Below are positions 604 to 50,342 of a stretch of 64,000 bases of DNA, piece by piece; position 1 is the first letter of the stretch; every line of letters begins with the position of its first letter. The position numbers and the translations under genes are program-made. This DNA comes from Candidatus Latescibacterota bacterium (GTDB lineage Bacteria; Latescibacterota; UBA2968; SICM01): assembly GCA_965217865.1 (NCBI GenBank), contig CBDCJO010000002.1, positions 4,960,001 through 5,024,000 on the forward strand, given 5' to 3'. The notes under the pieces were generated by a model, which had not been told where the DNA came from, made no database searches, and saw only the letters and a list, made by a program, of their open reading frames with translations.

Positions 604-747
604 ATATAGGAAAAGTGAACTCAAAATCATGAACGAAGGTCAGACACTCGCACACTATACGATTATCCGACCACTTGGCAAAGGCGGTACGGGTGAGCTC
701 TATCTTGCGCATGCACGCAGAATGGGAAAGAAAGGCGTCGTGATCCG

Positions 748-2367
748 ATGAAACTGCGACTGTCGCAAGCACACCTCGCCGCGGTGAATCGACGCCGACG
801 GGTGATTGTCAATTTCGACACCGGTTTCGGAGCTCCCTCTGTGGTCAGTCCGTTGGCTGGCATGGATATAGAACGCCTGGTGAAGCAATACTTCAGCATG
901 ATCGATGAACAGGGCGTGGAGATGGACAGCATCTGGTGGTGTTGGCTCGACGGAAATTACGCCAATTATCCAAGTCAGATTCTACCGATTTGGGAGCTGC
1001 CCGGATTCAAGGCATGGTGGGATGCTGGAATCGACCCGGTCCGGGTCTTTGCTGAAGAGACCAGCAAGCGAGGCAAGGAGGTGTTCTTTTCCTACCGGCT
1101 AAACGGAACCGACATGACCAGCATAGAGCCATTGAGCAAGCCGTTGTTGAAAGAAGCCCACCCCGAGTGGCTCCTCCATACGTGGGAGGCTTATGGAAAC
1201 CCAGGTTACTGGAACTTCGCGGTGCAGGGCGTGCGCGACTACAAGGTGAGCATTTTGCGTGAAGTCGCGGAAAACTACGACTACGACGGTATCGAGATCG
1301 ACTTTGCCAGAGTGCCCGTGACACTTCCGCCAGGACATCAATGGGAAAACTGCGAGTATTTGACCGGATTCATGCGTGCGGTGCGGGCGATGACGCTGGA
1401 AATTGAAGAGAACCGGGCCCGACCGTTTCTGATCGCGGCCCGGGTACCGGAAACCCTCGAGGGGTGCCACTTTGATGGGATGGATGTCGAAACCTGGGCC
1501 CGTGAGCAACTGGTAGACCTCTTCGTATTGGGGAATCGGTCCTTTGACGTAGACACCGCCGCTTTTCGTCGAATCACAGCGGGGACTGAGATTAAGCTCT
1601 ATCCGTGCATCGATGACCATCACGCCACGGACGGGTATTTGCACCCGCCCATCGAGGTTTTCCGCGGTGTATTTGCGAACTGGTGGCACCAGGGGGCAGA
1701 CGGCATCCAGACGTTCAACTTCACCAACGAGACCCCAGCCGACCCCGACCTCGTATGGGCGACTCACCGTCAGGCATATCGGGAAATGGCCAGCCCGGAG
1801 GGACTCAAACACAAGGACAAGACCTTTGTCCTCCAGCGCCGTGGTGGTGGCCATGGTCCAACCGTTGTGCCGAATCCGGAGGACTGGACCACACCCAGAT
1901 GGATGTACTACCTCACCAACATGTTGGCTCCGCTGCCGGCCAAGCTAGCCAACGATGGCAAAGGGGACACCCTGTTGAAGGTCCACGTCGCCGACGATCT
2001 GGCGAGCGAAGCCAAGGGCGTTGAGCGAATCACCGTTCGCCTTCTGCTGTCCGATTCAGCAGCGGAAGGTCTCCCGGCGAATGAGCGGCTTCAGACCGTC
2101 ACGGTGGCGACCCAAGCGCATACCCTGCAAAACATCCCGCCGGCAAAAGGCATTGCAGATCAAATCGAGTTAAGACTCAACAATGCGCGCCTCGGTCGCC
2201 CGGTCGTGGACGAGGGGTGGCTGGTCTTCACAGCGCAACCCAATCAATTTGCTGTGGGCAACAATCTGGTCGGGTTGCGCGTCACTGAGCGTTCGTTGGA
2301 CGCCCGAGACGAGATCTTGATTGAAAAGCTCGAAGTCCATGTGAAGTACCGGTTTGACGGTCAGTAG
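748..2367 (+). CDS. Glycosyl hydrolase-like TIM-barrel protein (GHL10-like)
   Basis: 539 aa; HPEW, WNFAVQGVR, YDYDGIEIDF and GADGIQTFNF motifs. Confidence 0.65.
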   Translation: MKLRLSQAHLAAVNRRRRVIVNFDTGFGAPSVVSPLAGMDIERLVKQYFSMIDEQGVEMDSIWWCWLDGNYANYPSQILPIWELPGFKAWWDAGIDPVRVFAEETSKRGKEVFFSYRLNGTDMTSIEPLSKPLLKEAHPEWLLHTWEAYGNPGYWNFAVQGVRDYKVSILREVAENYDYDGIEIDFARVPVTLPPGHQWENCEYLTGFMRAVRAMTLEIEENRARPFLIAARVPETLEGCHFDGMDVETWAREQLVDLFVLGNRSFDVDTAAFRRITAGTEIKLYPCIDDHHATDGYLHPPIEVFRGVFANWWHQGADGIQTFNFTNETPADPDLVWATHRQAYREMASPEGLKHKDKTFVLQRRGGGHGPTVVPNPEDWTTPRWMYYLTNMLAPLPAKLANDGKGDTLLKVHVADDLASEAKGVERITVRLLLSDSAAEGLPANERLQTVTVATQAHTLQNIPPAKGIADQIELRLNNARLGRPVVDEGWLVFTAQPNQFAVGNNLVGLRVTERSLDARDEILIEKLEVHVKYRFDGQ

Positions 2368-2398
2368 CGAACAAGCCGGAACGTTGGTTTAGGAACTA

Positions 2399-2453
2399 TT
2401 TCAACACAATGCATCGGATCGCTTCGCGCCTGATGATTGTGAAGCCGTTGTGT
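2399..2453 (+). other. Short attC site
   Basis: TTTCAAC...CATCGG-loop-CCTGATG...GTTGTGT. Confidence 0.65.
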
Positions 2454-2501
2454 TTTTTTGAAGTGCAGTAAAAGTTAAATTTCAACAAAGGAGAAACGCA
2501 A

Positions 2502-2825
2502 ATGCCTCAATACGTTATTGTTTATCTAGGCGGCGATCAGCCATCTAGCCCAGAGGAAGGTAAGCAACATTTTTCGAAATATATGGATTGGTTATCTTCA
2601 TTGGGCGACTCAGCTGTTAGTCCTGCTAATCCGCTTAAGAATACGAGCACAGTAAACTTTGATGGTACTGTTACCACTGGAGGCACAACGACAATGTCTG
2701 GTTACACTATAATTGAAGCGGATTCTATGGAGGCGGCACTGTCGATTGCTAAGGCTTGCCCTTTTCTTGATATTGGCGGTTCACTTGAGGTGTCAGAGTT
2801 AGTAGAGATGCCAAGCCAAAAATAA
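2502..2825 (+). CDS. YCII-related protein (intact cassette)
   Basis: SGYTIIEADSMEAALSIAKACPFL motif; AAGGAG RBS; flanking cores GTTGTGTTT / AAACATAAC are near-complementary. Confidence 0.8.
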   Translation: MPQYVIVYLGGDQPSSPEEGKQHFSKYMDWLSSLGDSAVSPANPLKNTSTVNFDGTVTTGGTTTMSGYTIIEADSMEAALSIAKACPFLDIGGSLEVSELVEMPSQK

Positions 2826-2912
2826 ACATAACAATCGCATTCACTCGGACCGCAAAAAGCGCCGCTCGTGCCTCGCTGTGCTTTTGGCATCCGGTGATGC
2901 GAAGCGTTATGC
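2826..2912 (+). other. attC site
   Basis: ACATAAC..CGCATTCACTCGGA...TCCGGTGATGCG..GTTATGC. Confidence 0.9.
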
Positions 2913-3095
2913 GGCTTTAACGCAGTTGGATCATCCTCCATCACGTGTTCTTGAAGGACGAATACGTCCAGGATCTGATTCACCGAATTGGTCTACCAAA
3001 CGACGACAATCATGTAATCGCCCCCACGGCTCTCAGGAAGTCCAAAGTCGCGTTTGCGTTCAAAGTCGTCAAACTCAACCGATTGAAACCGCCAT

Positions 3096-15390: not shown

Positions 15391-15519
15391 TAGTGGTTTT
15401 CTCAACATTGGGGTGTTTTGAGATCCACATCGGGTATGGGCGAAATCGTTATACGACAACCGTGGGCAGCACAGAAAACTGGCTAGCCGGTACCTCACAT
15501 CTCCCCTAGGAGAATTCTC

Positions 15520-16081
15520 TTGGGCACTGCCATTCCAGTTTTCTCCATCTCGATGCCCGAGTACTCCATCGATTCACGACCCGATTACTCGGCCGTCGGG
15601 GCGCGACTAGACCGTTTCATCGAGGAGCACCTACCGGGACGCCGGATGGCGCTGCGTGGCATTTACCTCGGCGATCATCCGGACCGACCGCGCAGACCTC
15701 GTAGCCACGATCCGCGAATTAGGCACGGATCGGTACGACGCGAACCGCGAGAGCGTGCACCACGCCTTCTACGAGCAGCTTGGGGTCGAGGTGCACGCGG
15801 TGGCGTGCGAAGTGACCGATAAACTGCGTGGCTTGGGCGACGAAGATTACGTTGCGGCTCCGTCGTTCTCGGGAGAGTTCATCGCGGATTTCTATGAGAG
15901 TGCCCGCGCCGAGAGGGGCTACCCGCTTCGGCTGGACATCCTGATCGCCTACGATCTCGACCAGCTCAATCCGGTGCCGGAGGACGCATCGCAGAGTTTT
16001 GCGTTCAAGAACCCCGACCGAAAACCGGAGGCACTTCTGGCCGTTGTCAACGTTCTGGGCGCTGACGAGGTTTTCCCCTAT
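15520..16081 (+). pseudogene. Frameshifted paralog of 13997-14569; stop codon hit by IS
   Basis: PEY..PDY / LGTDRYD / LRLDILIAY / FKNPDRK span two frames with a shift near 15690. Confidence 0.7.
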
Positions 16082-17607
16082 CAGCCTGTTGAAAAAGTGC
16101 GTTTATGCCAAGATGACTGTTGTCTTTCCTTGTGGTTTGGTCCTATGATATATCAGGTTCAAACTGAGAAGGGAGGACGAGCAAATGGCAATGGGAAAAC
16201 GAGGACGACAGAGACAGGAAAACCTGTTCATCGCATCGAACACTTTGGTGAAATCTCCGGGTCATCCGTTCTACGAGAAGCTGAATCAGGTATTGGGGGC
16301 GAACGGCTTCGACGAGTTCGTCGAGGGGCTTTGCCAGCGGTATTACGCTCCTCATATGGGTCGCAAGGGCATTCCGCCCGGGGTTTATTTTCGGATGCTT
16401 TTGATTGGGTATTTCGAGGGACTTGATTCGGAACGTGGGATCGAATGGCGTGTATCTGACTCGCTGACGTTGCGCCGGTTTTTGGGGTATGCCCTTGACG
16501 AACAGACCCCGGATCATTCCAGCCTGTCTCGCATCCGGCATCGGCTTCCCTTGGAAGTTCACGAAGCGGTTTTCAAGTGGATCCTGAGGGTCTTGTGCAA
16601 AGCGGGTCTGGTGAAGGGGAAGACGTTGGGCGTGGATGCTACGACACTGGAGGCCAACGCCGCGATGCGCAGCATTGTACGCCGTGACACGGGTGAAGGC
16701 TACCAGGCATTCCTTGAGAATCTGGCCAAGGCCTCGGGCATTGAAACGCCTACCCGCGAGGACTTGTCCAAGATCGATAAGAAGCGACCGAAGAAGGGAT
16801 CGAACCAGGACTGGGAGCACCCGCACGACCCGGATGCCAAGATCGCTAAGATGAAGGACGGTCGCACGCACATGGCGCACAAGGTGGAGCACGCGGTGGA
16901 TCTGGACACCAATGCCATTGTGGCAGTGGCGTTGTCGGGAGCAGATGAAGGAGATACCGGGTCGTTGCCCTGGACGCTGCTCGAGGCGCCGCTCAATCTC
17001 AAGCAGGTCGCGAAGGACGAAAAAGCTGCCAAACGTTTGCACAGACAGCGTATACGGGAGGTGGTTGCGGACAAAGGATATCATAGCAACGATGTATTGA
17101 CCAGTCTGAAGCAAGGCGGCATCCGGAGTTACATTTCAGAACCGGATCGGGGACGCCGCAAGTGGAACGGCCGACGAGATGAGCAGGCCGCGGTATATGC
17201 GAATCGACGCCGGATCAAGGGAGATCGCGGCAAGGCCTTGCGCCGAAGTCGTGCAGAACGGGTGGAAAGAACCATCGCTCACACATATGATACCGGTGGC
17301 ATGCGCAGGTTGCACTTGAGAGACCGCGGCAATATCCTCAAGCGTTTGCTGATCCACATCGGGGGCTGTAACCTGGCTCTGCTCATGCGCAAAGTGATGG
17401 GCGTAGGTACTCCGAAGGCCCTCCAGGACCTGGCCAAGGCCTTGCAGCGTCTACTGCTCGTCCTACAATCACGTTTGCTGCCCTCGGTCACCTTTTTAAC
17501 CTCTTATCAGCGTCTCCTGCTCAATCTCCTTACCTTGATTTATCTGACCCGCACTCCAGGCGTCTTTTCCGTTTATGTGCGTTGAAAGGTAGTTCTTCAA
17601 CGGGCTG
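16082..17607 (+). mobile_element. IS5/IS1182-like element
   Basis: IRs CAGCCTGTTGAAAAA / TTCTTCAACGGGCTG; flanks CTAT / CTAG. Confidence 0.9.
16185..17585 (+). CDS. DDE transposase (IS5/IS1182-like)
   Basis: PDHSSLSR, VDAT, ADKGY, RVE motifs. Confidence 0.9.
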   Translation: MAMGKRGRQRQENLFIASNTLVKSPGHPFYEKLNQVLGANGFDEFVEGLCQRYYAPHMGRKGIPPGVYFRMLLIGYFEGLDSERGIEWRVSDSLTLRRFLGYALDEQTPDHSSLSRIRHRLPLEVHEAVFKWILRVLCKAGLVKGKTLGVDATTLEANAAMRSIVRRDTGEGYQAFLENLAKASGIETPTREDLSKIDKKRPKKGSNQDWEHPHDPDAKIAKMKDGRTHMAHKVEHAVDLDTNAIVAVALSGADEGDTGSLPWTLLEAPLNLKQVAKDEKAAKRLHRQRIREVVADKGYHSNDVLTSLKQGGIRSYISEPDRGRRKWNGRRDEQAAVYANRRRIKGDRGKALRRSRAERVERTIAHTYDTGGMRRLHLRDRGNILKRLLIHIGGCNLALLMRKVMGVGTPKALQDLAKALQRLLLVLQSRLLPSVTFLTSYQRLLLNLLTLIYLTRTPGVFSVYVR

Positions 17608-17666
17608 CTAGCCGGTACCTGGCGCCCAGTGTACGGGAAATGGTGAACCGATCGAACACGGTCATC

Positions 17667-17750
17667 GTATAACAGGTCCACTGGCGGCTCCGGCCCCTGG
17701 AGGGGCCTCCGCGCAATTCGGCTGACGCCGAGTTCGCCAGTGGCCGAGAC
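17667..17750 (+). other. attC site interrupted by IS110 (R' GTTATGC at 19666-19672)
   Basis: GTATAAC..CCACTGGCG...CGCCAGTGG; TCGTATAAC is complementary to upstream core GTTATACGA at 15448. Confidence 0.85.
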
Positions 17751-19665
17751 TACATGCGGAAAGTCAAGAGCAAAGTTGACGATTTCGAGGTTGGATGAGA
17801 TTTTTTATGCCGGTTTTCTCAGCGTCAAGGGGTGTAAAGTGGACATTCTTACTATGTTCGGAGCGCAGTTCGCCCTTATGGTGCAGGACCGGTCTTTGAA
17901 GAGGGGCGAAGCTCCCGTGTGGGGGGTGGTGTCTTCCGATACCAACTTACATCCGCGGCCGGCACTCTTGTTTGTGTGAGTAGGTGTGCCGGTCTTCGCG
18001 CATTTTCTAATCCGATCCAGGAAGACGGGGAGGCCTGCGGATCTGTTAGCCGAAGCGACTCCTATCGGAGCCCTCCTCTCAAGCCAGTTCTGCAGGCCGC
18101 CCCTGGCCGCCTTGGAAGGCGGCAGCTTGTGTAACCGGTCCGGCAGGAGACTGCACCGGATGTGAATCGAGCAGCGATGTCAAAGAGCGAGTGTGACCGC
18201 GGCAGCGGTCAGGCGGCGGCGCGAGCGCGCCGTCGGGGATGCTGCTTTTTCTTGTAGCGCTTCATGTAGCGCCTCTCGAGCGTTTTGAGGGATGCCGCGG
18301 GGTGGTCTCTCTCCTCGTAGAGACGATTTTCTCTGAGCAGGGCTACGATGAGCCGTAGGAGCTGGGACGAGGCGGCCACGATATTCTTGCGGTAGCACTT
18401 CTTCCTGAGCTCGCGTTCGAGGAAGCGGCGGCGGACCTGGGGCACGACCCGGGCGGTCTGTTCGGTCATCTGGGTAGATGATTCGCCGCAGCCGGGGATT
18501 GCCGATCTTGCTCATCCGCCTTTTGCCTTTGTACTTTCCGGAGTCGGCGATGCGCACGTTCGTGCCGGCGAGCTTCTCGATCTGTTTGAAGTGGGTGAAG
18601 CGGGTGGCCCCTCGCGTCTCCGCGGTAAATTGGGCAGCCAGGTTTTTGTTGATGTTGGGGATCGAGTCGACGATTTGGAAAGTCGGATCCTGCTGAGTGC
18701 GGGCGATCATCGCCTGCTCCACAGCTTTGAGTTGCGTCTCGGTCCGCCGGAGCGCCTCGATCCAGCCATTCAGGATGATGCGGAGGACATCTTCCTGGCC
18801 CTCGACCGGGATCCCGATGGAGGTCCGGGCCTCCTCCTTCAGCTTCTGCAGCGTCGCCACCCCGTAACTGCCTCTTGAGATCCGATGGATCTGGCGGCCC
18901 TCCTCTTCGATGTCAATTTCCTCGAAGTGGCGGGGCAAGAAATATCGCTCCAACAGGTAGCGGGAGGTCTTCGTACGAATGTTGACCGCGTGGAGGAACT
19001 CCGGGAAGACGCGTTCCATCAGAGACCGGGTGCGGAGCAGGGACTTTGTGAGGTCCTTCCGGAGCTTGTCGTAGGCGATTGAGAGCTGGTGCGCGGCCTC
19101 CATGTGAGGCTCGAACGTCCTGAAGAGATCATAGCTTCCCTTCTGTGCGCTGTCGGCCACCAGAAAGGCATCCCTGGGATCCGACTTGGAGAAATCGCGG
19201 TGCATCATCGGTCTTGCGTGATACGTCGTGAGGGGGCTCACCAGCAGCACGCGATACCCCTTCCCCTGGAGGTAGTGGGCCAGGGTAACCCACAGATTGC
19301 AGGACGTCTCGATGGCCACCACCATCCGATCCGGCCCGCAATCTTTGATGCGTCGCTCCAGATGCTGCCAGAGGGTATGGTCATATCCCGCTCGCGTCAC
19401 GGGGAATGAGAAGGCCCCGCCTTGCTGAAGTCCGGAGGGATCGAGCACCGACCCGCTGTGTTTTTCCTTGCCCGGATCGATCCCGAGGACGAAATTCTGG
19501 GAGATGGCCTGTCGTTTAAGGTGGAAGATTTTCGACTTCATCGTATACCTCCAGCGTTGAGGGTTGAGTTTGCTTGCGCTTGCCGAATCTTAAGACACCT
19601 TGCCTTGCAAGGGAAGATTCAGCCCCTCAACGCTGTTTTTTCCTCCTTTACTCAATATAGAAATC
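17751..19665 (-). mobile_element. IS110-family element, copy 1
   Basis: Appears identical to 43228-45141 except one extra G near 18473; ends defined by where the two copies diverge. Confidence 0.92.
18209..19541 (-). pseudogene. IS110 transposase/recombinase, frameshifted near C-terminus
   Basis: GIDPGK, IETS, KSDPRDA, DSGK; CTGGGTAG versus CTGGTAG in copy 2. Confidence 0.85.
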
Positions 19666-19769
19666 GTTATGCACAATGCCGTTTTGGGGGCTTGGATAAT
19701 CGCACAAGGGGTGCAATTGTAGGACTTACTAACTAGGTACCACAGGTTAACTTTTGCGGAGGTAGCGTC

Positions 19770-20252
19770 GTGGACGAGAAAATCAATCTGGCGGACATTG
19801 GGGAGGAAAACCGCATTTCGCCGAAGTGTAAGTATGAGCTGTTTCGAAAACATATTTCGCTAGCACTTGGGGGCAAAAAAGATGTGGGTACTTGGGGTGG
19901 AGGCCATCCGTTTGACATAGAGCACGTGCGATTGCCGCCGGGGAAGCTTAATTATCCTTTTCACCAGCACAAGGTTCAGTGGGAGCTTTTCATTGTAGTA
20001 GGGGGCAAGGGAGTAGTCCGGCGAGACGACCGGGAGTTTGAAATTCGAGAGGGGGACTGTTTCATCCAGCCACTTGGGACAGCGCACCAAATCAGGAATG
20101 CGAGCCAGGCAGAAGATCTTATTTACTTCGTTATTGCTGACCACCCCCAGGCCGAAGTTGTGTATTATCCGGATTCCGAGAAGTGGTTGTTCCGACCACC
20201 GCGGACGATTGTTGAGGTCACGGATGTGGACTACTACAAGGGAGAGGAATAG
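19770..20252 (+). CDS. Cupin domain protein
   Basis: PFHQHKVQWE, AHQIRN, YYPDSEK. Confidence 0.85.
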   Translation: MDEKINLADIGEENRISPKCKYELFRKHISLALGGKKDVGTWGGGHPFDIEHVRLPPGKLNYPFHQHKVQWELFIVVGGKGVVRRDDREFEIREGDCFIQPLGTAHQIRNASQAEDLIYFVIADHPQAEVVYYPDSEKWLFRPPRTIVEVTDVDYYKGEE

Positions 20253-20286
20253 AACTTACGCTGATTCCTCCTTCCTCCTTCGCTCC

Positions 20287-20413
20287 GTCGGAGCTCCGGA
20301 GGACAGGTCGGAGCTCCGGAGGACAGGTCGGAGCTTCGGAAGGACAGGTCGGAGCTTCGGAAGGACAGGTCGGAGCTTCGGAAGGACAGGCCGCAGCTTC
20401 GGAGGACAGGCCG
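20287..20413 (+). repeat. Six tandem 20-21 bp REP-like units
   Basis: GTCGGAGCT(C/T)CGGA(A)GGACAG; followed by core GTTAGCG at 20439. Confidence 0.9.
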
Positions 20414-20521
20414 GCAGTTCGCGCACGGCGCGGACTACGTTAGCGCCATATTGTTTTTTGTGTGATGAGAAAAGCATAAGGGAGCAAAAACAATCCCAGC
20501 CTCACCCCAATTTACATACAC

Positions 20522-20747
20522 TATGATATTTCCTGCCTGTCTGGACCGAAAGAATTCATTTAACTGTGATCGCTATACGGAGTTATATTGTAGGTTGTAA
20601 TGAGACACACCTCATGCAGATCAACGCCCGGCAGATCGGCTGTGGAAAATCTGATCGTAGTTTTTAGGGGATGATATGCAGACCCAGATATCACTCCAAG
20701 ATCAAGGAGATTACACAAAGTAAAGGGTGTTAAACAAGCGTTTGGGC
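20522..20747 (+). promoter_or_regulatory. Repeated promoter/attI-like unit, copy 2
   Basis: Homologous to 10440-10669; ends TAAACAAGCG-TTTGGGC. Confidence 0.5.
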
Positions 20748-20750
20748 TCA

Positions 20751-20845
20751 CTCTAACCAACCCCTCAAGCAGACGGATCGTCTGTCACAGGCCAAGCTTC
20801 CGCAAGGCCAGCCTCAGACGCCCGCAGCTTAGGTCCGTGTTAGAC
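20751..20845 (+). other. attC site with no preceding ORF
   Basis: CTCTAAC..AAGCAGACGG...CCGCAGCTT..GTTAGAC. Confidence 0.75.
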
Positions 20846-39302: not shown

Positions 39303-39479
39303 TTATCGGTGCATACCTTGCGGCATTCCTTCGCTACTCATTTGCTTGAACGGGGAACGGATTTGCGTTATATTCAAGAATTATTAGGACATAAGAGTTC
39401 TAAGACCACCGAAATCTACACCAGGGTCACAACCCGAGATATCGGTAAGATTCAGAGTCCTCTGGATAGTTTAATGTAA
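39303..39479 (+). pseudogene. Tyrosine recombinase C-terminal remnant (probable integron integrase)
   Basis: [40 protein letters not shown]...IQSPLD. Confidence 0.9.
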
Positions 39480-39589: not shown

Positions 39590-39638
39590 CCGAAATTAAG
39601 AAATCTACGTAGGAGTTCGGGAATACCGTAAGTTAGGT
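39590..39638 (+). other. attI-like site
   Basis: Core GTTAGGT at 39632 without an attC hairpin; GTTAGGTGCC is the exact complement of GGCACCTAAC at 40481. Confidence 0.65.
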
Positions 39639-40470
39639 GCCATGGTTGACATCAGCAAACTTCCTGAAGAGCAACATGAATGCTAAGTCGACTTGCGCTC
39701 TCTGCCTCACTCGGACGGAATTAGTCAACAGCCATCTGATCCCTGCGGCACTATACCGCCAGATTCGCGAGCCCCAGCAACTGAATCCCAACCCTGTCTT
39801 GATTTCTAAATCTGGAGCACGGCTCACAAGTGATCAGGTCAAAGCGCGTCTTCTTTGCAGTGATTGCGAAAATCTACTTTCCAGAGAAGGTGAGGACTAT
39901 GTTCTTCCGAGATGTGCAAGGAAAGACGGAGGGTTCAAATTACGGGACGACATACTCAAGGGCACTTTGATTGAACAGTCTCCGAGATACAAGGGCTACG
40001 AAATTGGCTCTACATTAAGGCAAGGGATCACCAAACTCCTCCACTTTGGCTCCGGTGTGTTTTGGAAGAGTTCCGTGGGCAAGTGGAAAGACCGGGGAAG
40101 GATGGTGAAATCCATCGATCTTGGGCCATATGAGGAAGAGTTCCGTCGGTATCTTCATGGGCAAGCACCTTTCCCTCTCCAAAGTCGTATGATGCTTCAG
40201 GTATCCGACAGCCCCAATCCTGACCTTGTAATTACTTTCCCTCATCGGACGAAACTGCGAGGAATGTTTAGGTACAAATTTCAGATACCAGGCCTGCAAT
40301 TCGTTCTTTTCGTTGGTGGCAAAATCCCTCACGAAAAGTTCACGCTTGCTTCGAGCACTTGCCAATCAGTGTTTCTTTGCGATTTGCACGACGATGGAGC
40401 GTTTCGTGGCATGCTTGATTTGGTGAGACAGGCTGGGAAACTGAAACCAGCAAGGCGAAAGAGGAAATAA
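39637..40470 (+). CDS. Hypothetical cassette protein, HNH-like N-terminus
   Basis: CALC..SHLIP...LLCSDCE. Confidence 0.65.
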   Translation: MPWLTSANFLKSNMNAKSTCALCLTRTELVNSHLIPAALYRQIREPQQLNPNPVLISKSGARLTSDQVKARLLCSDCENLLSREGEDYVLPRCARKDGGFKLRDDILKGTLIEQSPRYKGYEIGSTLRQGITKLLHFGSGVFWKSSVGKWKDRGRMVKSIDLGPYEEEFRRYLHGQAPFPLQSRMMLQVSDSPNPDLVITFPHRTKLRGMFRYKFQIPGLQFVLFVGGKIPHEKFTLASSTCQSVFLCDLHDDGAFRGMLDLVRQAGKLKPARRKRK

Positions 40471-40483
40471 GGTCATCCACGGC

Positions 40484-40534
40484 ACCTAACAAGGCACTCC
40501 CAAGCTTCGCTGACGCTCCGCAGAAACCTGCCTT
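40484..40534 (+). other. attC site split by IS3 (remainder 42069-42100)
   Basis: ACCTAAC..GGCACTCCC | GGGAGTGCC..GTTACAC. Confidence 0.85.
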
Positions 40535-42797: not shown

Positions 42798-42983
42798 CAG
42801 CCTGTTGAAAAAGTGCGTTTATGCCAAGATGACTGTTGTCTTTCCTTGTGGTTTGGTCCTATGATATATCAGGTTCAAACTGAGAAGGGAGGACGAGCAA
42901 ATGGCAATGGGAAAACGAGGACGACAGAGACAGGAAAACCTGTTCATCGCATCGAACACTTTGGTGAAATTTCCGGGTCATCC
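42798..42983 (+). mobile_element. Truncated left end of the IS5/IS1182-like element
   Basis: Near-identical to 16082-16267; preceded by CTAG. Confidence 0.9.
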
Positions 42984-43152: not shown

Positions 43153-43227
43153 TCTTAACACGCCGCTTGCGGCTCGTGCCTGCGGCCCTCGACCAAACCC
43201 ACTTCGTGGGTTCGCAAGCGGCTAAAC
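43153..43227 (+). other. attC site interrupted by IS110 (R' GTTAAAT at 45142-45148)
   Basis: TCTTAAC..CCGCTTGCG...CGCAAGCGG. Confidence 0.85.
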
Positions 43228-43685
43228 TACATGCGGAAAGTCAAGAGCAAAGTTGACGATTTCGAGGTTGGATGAGATTTTTTATGCCGGTTTTCTCAGC
43301 GTCAAGGGGTGTAAAGTGGACATTCTTACTATGTTCGGAGCGCAGTTCGCCCTTATGGTGCAGGACCGGTCTTTGAAGAGGGGCGAAGCTCCCGTGTGGG
43401 GGGTGGTGTCTTCCGATACCAACTTACATCCGCGGCCGGCACTCTTGTTTGTGTGAGTAGGTGTGCCGGTCTTCGCGCATTTTCTAATCCGATCCAGGAA
43501 GACGGGGAGGCCTGCGGATCTGTTAGCCGAAGCGACTCCTATCGGAGCCCTCCTCTCAAGCCAGTTCTGCAGGCCGCCCCTGGCCGCCTTGGAAGGCGGC
43601 AGCTTGTGTAACCGGTCCGGCAGGAGACTGCACCGGATGTGAATCGAGCAGCGATGTCAAAGAGCGAGTGTGACCGCGGCAGCGG
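43228..43685 (-). ncRNA. Candidate bridge/seek RNA region (also 17751-18208)
   Basis: 458 bp non-coding end downstream of tnp with hairpins (CCGGCAC..GTGCCGG, GCCGCCTT..AAGGCGGC, TTCGCCC..GGGCGAA); assigned by analogy to IS1111. Confidence 0.55.
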
Positions 43686-45017
43686 TCAGGCGGCGGCGCG
43701 AGCGCGCCGTCGGGGATGCTGCTTTTTCTTGTAGCGCTTCATGTAGCGCCTCTCGAGCGTTTTGAGGGATGCCGCGGGGTGGTCTCTCTCCTCGTAGAGA
43801 CGATTTTCTCTGAGCAGGGCTACGATGAGCCGTAGGAGCTGGGACGAGGCGGCCACGATATTCTTGCGGTAGCACTTCTTCCTGAGCTCGCGTTCGAGGA
43901 AGCGGCGGCGGACCTGGGGCACGACCCGGGCGGTCTGTTCGGTCATCTGGTAGATGATTCGCCGCAGCCGGGGATTGCCGATCTTGCTCATCCGCCTTTT
44001 GCCTTTGTACTTTCCGGAGTCGGCGATGCGCACGTTCGTGCCGGCGAGCTTCTCGATCTGTTTGAAGTGGGTGAAGCGGGTGGCCCCTCGCGTCTCCGCG
44101 GTAAATTGGGCAGCCAGGTTTTTGTTGATGTTGGGGATCGAGTCGACGATTTGGAAAGTCGGATCCTGCTGAGTGCGGGCGATCATCGCCTGCTCCACAG
44201 CTTTGAGTTGCGTCTCGGTCCGCCGGAGCGCCTCGATCCAGCCATTCAGGATGATGCGGAGGACATCTTCCTGGCCCTCGACCGGGATCCCGATGGAGGT
44301 CCGGGCCTCCTCCTTCAGCTTCTGCAGCGTCGCCACCCCGTAACTGCCTCTTGAGATCCGATGGATCTGGCGGCCCTCCTCTTCGATGTCAATTTCCTCG
44401 AAGTGGCGGGGCAAGAAATATCGCTCCAACAGGTAGCGGGAGGTCTTCGTACGAATGTTGACCGCGTGGAGGAACTCCGGGAAGACGCGTTCCATCAGAG
44501 ACCGGGTGCGGAGCAGGGACTTTGTGAGGTCCTTCCGGAGCTTGTCGTAGGCGATTGAGAGCTGGTGCGCGGCCTCCATGTGAGGCTCGAACGTCCTGAA
44601 GAGATCATAGCTTCCCTTCTGTGCGCTGTCGGCCACCAGAAAGGCATCCCTGGGATCCGACTTGGAGAAATCGCGGTGCATCATCGGTCTTGCGTGATAC
44701 GTCGTGAGGGGGCTCACCAGCAGCACGCGATACCCCTTCCCCTGGAGGTAGTGGGCCAGGGTAACCCACAGATTGCAGGACGTCTCGATGGCCACCACCA
44801 TCCGATCCGGCCCGCAATCTTTGATGCGTCGCTCCAGATGCTGCCAGAGGGTATGGTCATATCCCGCTCGCGTCACGGGGAATGAGAAGGCCCCGCCTTG
44901 CTGAAGTCCGGAGGGATCGAGCACCGACCCGCTGTGTTTTTCCTTGCCCGGATCGATCCCGAGGACGAAATTCTGGGAGATGGCCTGTCGTTTAAGGTGG
45001 AAGATTTTCGACTTCAT
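43686..45017 (-). CDS. IS110 family transposase/recombinase
   Basis: DEDD domain (GID, IET, KSDPRDA) and C-terminal SG motif; GGAGG RBS. Confidence 0.93.
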   Translation of the reverse strand: MKSKIFHLKRQAISQNFVLGIDPGKEKHSGSVLDPSGLQQGGAFSFPVTRAGYDHTLWQHLERRIKDCGPDRMVVAIETSCNLWVTLAHYLQGKGYRVLLVSPLTTYHARPMMHRDFSKSDPRDAFLVADSAQKGSYDLFRTFEPHMEAAHQLSIAYDKLRKDLTKSLLRTRSLMERVFPEFLHAVNIRTKTSRYLLERYFLPRHFEEIDIEEEGRQIHRISRGSYGVATLQKLKEEARTSIGIPVEGQEDVLRIILNGWIEALRRTETQLKAVEQAMIARTQQDPTFQIVDSIPNINKNLAAQFTAETRGATRFTHFKQIEKLAGTNVRIADSGKYKGKRRMSKIGNPRLRRIIYQMTEQTARVVPQVRRRFLERELRKKCYRKNIVAASSQLLRLIVALLRENRLYEERDHPAASLKTLERRYMKRYKKKQHPRRRARAAA

Positions 45018-45229
45018 CGTATACCTCCAGCGTTGAGGGTTGAGTTTGCTTGCGCTTGCCGAATCTTAAGACACCTTGCCTTGCAAGGGAAGATTCAGCC
45101 CCTCAACGCTGTTTTTTCCTCCTTTACTCAATATAGAAATCGTTAAATGCAAGCAGCGCAAAGACAAACCCCATAAACCATACACTCTTGCTCTTGACTG
45201 AGCAATCCTGCAAATCGTCGGAGGCAAGT

Positions 45230-50228: not shown

Positions 50229-50342
50229 ATGTAACAAGACGGTTCCCGGCTCCGCTCCTTCGTCGCTCCGGCCCAACTTGGCCTCACCGCACCGAAGACC
50301 CAACCACCCAATGGCCAAGTTCGGGAACCGCGACCGTTAACT
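50229..50342 (+). other. attC site
   Basis: ATGTAAC..CGGTTCCCG...CGGGAACCG..GTTAACT; GTTAACTGC pairs with GCAGTTAAC at 51217. Confidence 0.85.

Follow-up and report, generated by a model that had tools for sequence, protein, structure and literature searches.

A 1,914-bp insertion sequence (IS) of the IS110 family, present in seven full-length copies in the genome of a Candidatus Latescibacterota bacterium, likely chooses its insertion sites by means of a bridge/seek RNA encoded downstream of its transposase gene (tnp), in which a conserved CUAAC guide matches the R' box of integron attC sites. Two of the copies, called A and B here, lie in the stretch that we analysed, a 64,000-nt window corresponding to C2:4960001-5024000 of the two-contig, 6.43-Mb genome (G000; C1 and C2 are its contigs, and positions given without a contig are those of the window). 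The element is predicted to be an RNA-guided member of the IS110 family that has its RNA positioned as in IS1111-type elements, carries no subterminal repeats and is aimed at the R' end of attC. This would place the attC habit in a branch unrelated to the IS1111-attC elements, at the other end of attC, and with guides that are readable from the sequence.

Copies A and B, compared as 43226-45143 and 17749-19667, align over 1,919 bases with no mismatch and a single gap, caused by one additional G in copy B behind the position that corresponds to window 43948. The stretch common to both runs from AC|TACATGCGG to GAAATC|GTTA, and the element proper therefore spans 43228-45141 in copy A (1,914 bp, minus strand, transposase intact) and 17751-19665 in copy B (1,915 bp, minus strand, transposase frame broken by the extra G); the bounds of copy A are those given by the seven full-length copies with their differing flanks. 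The transposase gene of copy A (43686-45017, minus strand) is an open reading frame (ORF) of 443 residues with two IS110-family domains, the N-terminal, RuvC-like DEDD domain PF01548 (68.1 bits, residues 19-180) and the C-terminal Transposase_20 domain PF02371 (59.1 bits, residues 289-371). It also scores 157.9 bits with the NCBIfam model NF033542, 'IS110 family RNA-guided transposase', for which the cut-off is 140. Both domains that mark a DEDD transposase of the IS110 family are thus present, and the element inserts site-specifically without a multi-base target duplication, as members of that family do. A single base is common to flank and element end (C on the plus strand), and an inverted comparison of the 60 bases at either end of the element yields 6 bp at best, a match that is not subterminal at both ends; the earlier, sequence-only reading of this DNA had described the ends in just this way, with one shared C and no subterminal inverted repeats. 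The non-coding ends that flank tnp differ in length, with 125 bp upstream and 458 bp downstream (43228-43685). They hold the two halves of a predicted circle-junction promoter, a -35 box TTGACT at 43239-43244 (minus strand) and, in the left end, a -10 box TATATT at 45130-45135 (minus strand), both read from the sequence. Once the right and left ends are joined, they read TTGACT, 17 nt and TATATT, and relatives of the element have the same geometry.

Each of the two copies in the window splits an attC site. At copy A, the R''-L''-L' part occupies 43153-43227 (plus strand, ending ...GGCTAAAC) and the R' box GTTAAAT lies at 45142-45148 (plus strand); at copy B, the corresponding parts are found at 17667-17750 (plus strand, ending ...GCCGAGAC) and at 19666-19672 (GTTATGC, plus strand). 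In silico excision restores TCTTAAC...GTTAAAT at copy A (82 nt, -24.8 kcal/mol) and GTATAAC...GTTATGC at copy B (91 nt, -25.2 kcal/mol), both of them imperfect palindromes with paired R boxes that had been cut immediately 5' of the R' GTT. That the two insertions share the same attC base, as first proposed, is thereby borne out. Cassette ORFs begin on the plus strand shortly after R', namely a cupin ORF at 19770-20252 behind copy B and an ORF from 45188 behind copy A, and the transposase, on the minus strand, is therefore antiparallel to the cassettes, again in agreement with the earlier proposal. The start of an ORF resembling dihydrofolate reductase (DHFR), read by eye, likewise follows R' at another copy.

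Across the genome, the element has 17 matches, seven of full length and ten partial. The full-length copies are 99.3-100% identical to one another, and the sequences to their left and right differ as far as AC| and |GTTA. In window orientation, each of the 11 left ends that are preserved has AC ahead of it, and 11 of the 12 preserved right ends are followed by GTTA, so the invariant target reads AC|GTTA, or TAAC|GT in the orientation of the transposase. The 443-residue ORF is intact in four of the seven full copies. The extra G that breaks the frame of copy B recurs in the copy at C2:3464212-3466126, which sits at an unrelated site; the same frameshift in two copies suggests that defective copies were moved in trans, or else that a GG run slipped repeatedly. 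The copy at C2:3759594-3761495 (locus L006) keeps its ORF and its AC| and |GTTA flanks and is missing the final 12 bases of the left end (its right end in window orientation); it should no longer be a donor. In contigs assembled from two sequencing runs of unrecorded library type, the depth of the element exceeds that of its flanks about sevenfold (60.9 versus 8.5 and 159.6 versus 20.6). These contigs are unable to show circle junctions, and the single 'joint' among them, leading from 43214 to 45136 with eight other letters, looks like the flank of another copy. A phylum-wide search found the protein in one other of 167 genomes (51% identity, with two stops).

Five of the seven full copies occupy attC-like targets, the rebuilt sites being 71-127 nt long imperfect palindromes with paired R boxes and the R'' RYYYAAC and R' GTTRRRY ends of integron attC. 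These calls come from our own heuristic hairpin filter, not from the IntegronFinder model; its first strict form gave too few sites in the window, and relaxed versions were used later. The strict filter is passed by the targets of four full copies, and that of the fifth copy, which spans C2:1987361-1989274, falls narrowly below it, folding as a 71-nt GCCTAAC...GTTAAGC site. The remaining two copies lie in genes. One splits a Na:Ala symporter gene, the downstream piece of which matches PF01235 with 436 bits from profile position 8, and the other interrupts an ORF with methyltransferase domains, 24 codons short of its end. AC|GTTA is found at both sites, and neither has an attC-like hairpin. Insertion thus does not depend on a folded attC, since two of the seven full copies lie within genes, and the strict form of the earlier proposal, against which copies at non-attC sites were to count, has to be given up.

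The preference for attC is nonetheless real. With the copies removed, the genome holds 865 ACGTTA sites, of which 22 fall at the R' boundary of an attC-like hairpin, and four of these 22 are occupied, all by full-length copies; as four of seven copies are found among so small a fraction of sites, their attC insertion is not chance. A crude ORF mask leaves 208 of the 865 sites outside ORFs of at least 120 residues. Among intergenic full copies, five of five are in attC, as against roughly one in ten of the remaining ACGTTA sites being attC, and the bias thus exceeds what ACGTTA and an intergenic position account for, even if in-gene insertions are mostly lost.

The sequence of the sites accounts for the end and the orientation that are used. 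In 55 strand-specific attC-like hits, AC is the commonest pair both after the R'' TAAC (17 hits) and before the R' GTTA (22 hits). As attC here typically reads TAAC-AC...AC-GTTA, TAAC|GT exists only at the R' end, on the bottom strand, and hence a single end and a single orientation of attC are used. The three unoccupied attC-like sites found in the window, at 2826-2912, 20751-20845 and 50229-50342, have GC, GT and CC, respectively, before GTTA. Sites near 50229 and 40484 had been put forward as empty candidate targets; the former is attC-like with CC, not AC, in front of GTTA, and at the latter an R''-side arm alone was seen.

The predicted guide RNA, with two internal loops, lies at 43400-43585 (minus strand) within the 3' non-coding region. 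It folds with a minimum free energy of -79.3 kcal/mol (z = -3.84, none of 200 shuffles being as stable) and is identical in all seven full copies. A search with an alignment of 37 proteins led to 55 related loci in metagenome-assembled genomes, with titles that name at least nine phyla and with 35-53% protein identity over the best segment. From these, an RNA alignment of 33 sequences was built, made up of the copy in the window and 32 relatives at 36-51% protein identity. RNAalifold, run on a plain MAFFT alignment, recovered six outer-stem pairs and nothing more, and the stems were therefore named and counted by hand: three stems, counted as four helices with 23 pairs. Over the 33 sequences, 81.1% of the cells of these pairs are paired, against 71.9% in shuffles, and 91 cells are changed on both sides, against 35 in shuffles; none of 500 shuffles reaches either value. 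Sliding the partner by one to three columns lowers the pairing to 33-57%, a fairer control because the shuffles ignore relatedness. Many G-U pairs in the stems fit the transposase-sense strand.

Loop 2 is predicted to carry the guides for the ends of the element itself. Its 5' side, UAGAAAAUG (43478-43486, minus strand), is complementary to the bases that open the left end (GATTT...), and its 3' side, GGAUGUAAG (43423-43431, minus strand), reads in the same sense as those that close the right end (...CATGTA). Both relations persist as the sequences change. Position 4 of the left end pairs with guide position 2 in 25 of 25 elements, by way of T:A in 18, G:C in four and A:U in three. At the right end, the terminal 5-mer is identical to that of the guide in 20 of 21 elements and differs by one base in the exception, the right ends of single-copy relatives having been placed by homology, the -35 box, spacing and a short list of allowed endings; five different right-end 5-mers are represented (AAGTA 12, AAGCA 5, ATGTA 1, ATATA 1 and AAGAA 1). 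In a bridge or seek RNA, which is structured, loops complementary to the donor ends are expected to vary in step with these ends, as both sides of loop 2 do here.

Loop 1 is predicted to read the target. On its 3' side, CGGCUAAC (43522-43529, minus strand) is the predicted guide for the R' box, that is, for the flank ending ...TAAC in transposase orientation. It belongs to a CUAAC-N-GAU motif in which, over the 33 sequences, TAA-GA is invariant and the C and the U are nearly so. In transposase orientation, 20 of 26 elements have a left flank with TAAC at its end, and in 14 of the 26 the terminal 5-mer of this flank is identical to the guide. Two relatives depart from this consensus in different ways: locus L049 has a CUAAU guide together with a TTAAT flank, and locus L042 keeps an ...AAC guide with a TTAAT flank, which is a mismatch. 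On the 5' side, CAGAAC (43564-43569, minus strand) adjoins the outer stem and is a candidate guide for the other flank, with which it could pair at the starting GTTY; this assignment was made by eye, as was the comparison with flanks, where G1 and T2 fit in 11 of 11 cases and position 4 is C or T in nine of 11. The 3' side of the target loop is thus clear (CUAAC against TAAC), and the 5' side is a reading by eye. Recognition of the R box, one of the options that the sequence-only reading had offered, stands on the matching CUAAC guide; the other option, that the folded attC is read instead of sequence, gives way to a short guide match.

We envision the following mechanism. The element would excise as a circle, and a sigma-70 promoter, TTGACT-17-TATATT, would arise where its right and left ends meet. 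Bound to the DEDD/Ser recombinase, the RNA would hold the circle junction in loop 2 and the target in loop 1, with CGGCUAAC on the 3' side of loop 1 pairing with the R' box and GAAC on its 5' side with the adjacent GTTY. Strand exchange would then take place at the single shared G, a C on the plus strand, which lies one base 5' of the point G|TT where IntI crosses over.

Several observations weigh against this account of an RNA-guided element. In most relatives, as judged by eye, the 5' side of loop 1 matches a box 5-9 nt away from the junction; this box reads GCTAAG or GCTAAAC, and the match extends to 10 bp in L051 and to 7 bp in L038 and L074. When the 865 TAACGT sites are scored with extended guides, the occupied ones rank 2, 39, 75, 119, 144, 304 and 592, which is better than random and far from the top; with ranks as poor as these, base pairing as we read it fails to predict the used sites by itself. 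The invariant pairing is short (TAAC plus GT), and the one-base core differs from the CT dinucleotide of IS621. The agreement of right ends with loop 2 in 20 of 21 elements is not fully independent, since promoter geometry and allowed endings were used in placing those ends. An Rfam scan of the element found no matching family, its best hit being sX12, at 24.7 bits against a gathering score of 106. Finally, contigs from RNA libraries cover 43286-43722 at depths of 2.9-5.1 in three of four metatranscriptome libraries of one study, and they extend over the ORF as well, so that DNA carry-over is possible and transcription is weakly hinted at.

With these points in mind, the excess of insertions in attC could also be taken to mean that the element recognises the folded attC hairpin, or attC in single-stranded form, and that the short common sequence is incidental. 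The count of five full copies in attC, where 22 of 865 ACGTTA sites are attC-like and 208 lie outside ORFs, leans that way, as do the poor ranks of occupied sites under extended guide matching and the precedent of ISPpu10, which according to the available part of one preprint uses a target stem-loop as a second layer of specificity (bioRxiv 10.64898/2026.03.19.712850). We consider this improbable, as the two in-gene copies were inserted at AC|GTTA without any attC-like hairpin, the R box is spelled out in one conserved RNA loop and a second loop covaries with the element's ends, and the rule of one end and one orientation is explained by sequence alone. Still less credit is due to the idea that the copies spread by duplication, or by movement of cassettes that carried the IS along, and not by site-specific transposition. 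Integron cassettes do move as units, and the fragments at C2:3340277 and C1:640637 have an identical right flank; all seven full copies, on the other hand, have unlike sequence on either side as far as AC| and |GTTA while remaining 99.3-100% identical, and two of them interrupt ordinary genes. Site-specific, RNA-guided transposition thus remains the reading that we favour. A structural preference may act on top of the base pairing, as attC sites are over-represented among the insertions.

An IS1111-attC group was reportedly set out by Tetu and Holmes in 2008 and by Post and Hall in 2009, and the present element might be taken for a plain member of it, alongside ISPa21, ISPst6, ISKpn4 and ISUnCu1. 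It does share with these elements a DEDD-type IS110-family transposase and site- and orientation-specific insertion into attC, antiparallel to the cassettes and disrupting the attC, and its predicted guide RNA (43400-43585), conserved and set in a long non-coding region downstream of tnp, stands where the seekRNA of IS1111-type elements is encoded according to the accessible part of PMC11187229, which reports a seekRNA for ISKpn4/ISPst6 and a top-strand match 5' of the bottom-strand match. The same excerpt gives the IS1111 group subterminal inverted repeats of 11-13 bp with terminal extensions of 7 bp and 3 bp, and such repeats are absent from our element. They are present as GGACTCCCC/GGGGAGAGTCC in ISUnCu1, which PMC10232235, in the portion available, names on plasmid NZ_CP016446 and which is antiparallel to the cassettes there. 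ISUnCu1 is inserted after GTCTAAC-AATTC, in the R''-L'' spacer, with L'', L' and the R' box GTTAGAT on its other side (n=1), and thus at the 5' end of attC, whereas our element lies before the R' GTT, at the 3' end. ISPa21 and ISPst6, whose transposases form one clade, are likewise described as antisense and 'near the 5'-end' of attC in the part of PMC3001079 that could be consulted; the orientation of our element fits that description and its position does not. The transposase barely aligns with that of ISUnCu1 (BLASTP, 25% identity over 88 of 443 residues, E = 0.002) and does not belong to the IS1111-attC clade as judged by pairwise comparison with ISUnCu1 alone. A tblastn search of 72,556 plasmids gave at most 28% identity, and the matches listed were mostly Gram-positive IS110-type elements (ISBth13, ISMav6, ISSep2, IS621), with no IS1111-type element among them. 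The element is also found in environmental phyla, not in Pseudomonas or clinical class 1 integrons. Plain membership in the IS1111-attC group is accordingly very hard to sustain, and a lineage distinct from it, as the sequence-only reading had supposed, is upheld by the 25% identity, the opposite attC end and the missing subterminal repeats.

Among elements with solved structures, weak similarity was found to ISCro4 (E = 9e-11) and IS621 (E = 2e-10), represented by PDB 8wt6 and 9t56, mostly in the C-terminal domain. For IS621, the available part of PMC11208160 describes a bridge RNA with two loops, of which one serves the target and the other the donor. The RNA proposed here likewise has two internal loops for target and donor, each with a top-strand and a bottom-strand side, and it shares with IS621 and ISCro4 a promoter that would be completed at the circle junction; such a junction promoter is described for ISEc11 in the accessible portion of PMC11187229, and the TTGACT-17-TATATT of our element fits it. 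The differences from IS621 and ISCro4 are that the RNA lies in the right end and not in a long left end upstream of tnp (the left end being 125 bp here), that the order of top- and bottom-strand guides within the loop is reversed, that the guides look shorter, and that a single shared core base replaces CT.

Two other kinds of mobile element resemble this one in their choice of target. Group IIC-attC introns are specialised on attC and inserted antisense to cassettes, and they differ in being retroelements with another mechanism and in using the attC 5' end, as far as the available part of PMC3001079 describes them. ISPpu10 is an IS110-type element with structured repeats (REP-like stem-loops) as natural targets, under what the preprint, in its accessible part, calls a 'dual-match' (bioRxiv 10.64898/2026.03.19.712850). 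Its targeting is a possible model for the excess of attC insertions seen here, with the difference that two of the seven copies of our element lie outside any such structure. In the open full-text literature, to which the survey was limited (subscription papers and ISfinder being outside its scope), attC targeting was found for IS1111-type elements alone.

In 14 relatives, both ends could be placed, and seven of these have a complementary GTT box within at most 160 nt. Three of the seven, L035, L036 and L061, fold at -0.20 kcal/mol per nt or below and are attC-like. Others, such as L037, sit in repeats in which a CTAAC box stands next to a hairpin, and at L037 there is no clear second R box. 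Targeting of attC across the clade is thus likely for some members, and it is partly shown, as three of the 14 relatives fold strongly as attC-like. A strict attC scan of the relatives' loci returned no site in 241 kb, with a threshold that was taken from a genome of 55% guanine plus cytosine and is probably too hard for AT-rich sequence, so that the result does not speak for absence.

A broader interpretation, which we put forward tentatively and regard as rather doubtful, is that these elements form an old IS110-type clade apart from IS1111-attC. In such a clade, the CUAAC guide would have stayed fixed as the transposases of at least nine phyla drifted apart to some 40% identity, the core would be a single base, and the hairpin or single-stranded form of attC would act as a structural gate that boosts insertion. 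Integron sites would, if this were true, be a 'safe harbour' in common use, found at least twice by RNA-guided transposons and from opposite ends of attC. Independently of this interpretation, the very short guide matches (about four plus two invariant bases), combined with a strong site bias, make the element a natural case in which a contribution of DNA structure to the specificity of bridge recombinases could be tested.

The integron context looks like one of clusters and single attC sites without a working integrase. About 41 strict attC-like sites are scattered over the 6.4 Mb in small clusters. No genome match reaches the TIGR02249 cut-off for an integron integrase, and the best candidate, at C2:1657178-1657988, is split in two frames (118 + 105 bits). 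About 3 kb from this split, integrase-like gene, at C2:1654148-1654277, there is an attC-like site with AC|GTTA that is unoccupied. Within the window, 39306-39470 (plus strand) encodes a 55-residue C-terminal fragment of a tyrosine recombinase, which scores 80 bits with TIGR02249, 75 with XerD and 73 with XerC and is oriented like the cassettes, unlike a normal intI. Since insertion parts R' from the rest of the attC, IntI recombination there should be blocked, and elements that insert in this way should freeze the neighbouring cassettes.

Further observations concern the cassettes and the other mobile elements nearby. At 39632-40493, GTTAGGTGCC stands just before the ORF at 39637-40470 and its complement GGCACCTAAC just after it, which is the signature expected of one gene cassette with a start that matches the R'' box of its own attC; the 3' half of an attC was not found after this ORF. 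A short tandem repeat at 20256-20526, between the cupin ORF and the next attC-like site, would encode PKLRPVL or GRSFGRT depending on the strand. A contig from run X3 follows the left arm of attC A to 43222 and continues with AAACGTTATACGAC..., without the IS and with other sequence after R', and may represent the same attC beside another cassette in the community. An IS5/IS1182-like element at 15480-17640, with a 466-residue ORF at 16185-17585 (DUF772 and DDE_Tnp_1), ends just before attC B, and a truncated 5' part of such an element, at 42835-42983, stands just before attC A. The same 5' piece also abuts an IS110 fragment at C2:1382588, and in the run contigs it reaches a depth of 700-3000, compared with 8-20 for its flanks. 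Lastly, a 353-bp right-end fragment of the IS110 element at C2:2467856-2468208 (locus L011) ends exactly at the start of a CRISPR array, of which two 29-bp repeats and the spacer between them are visible in the flank.

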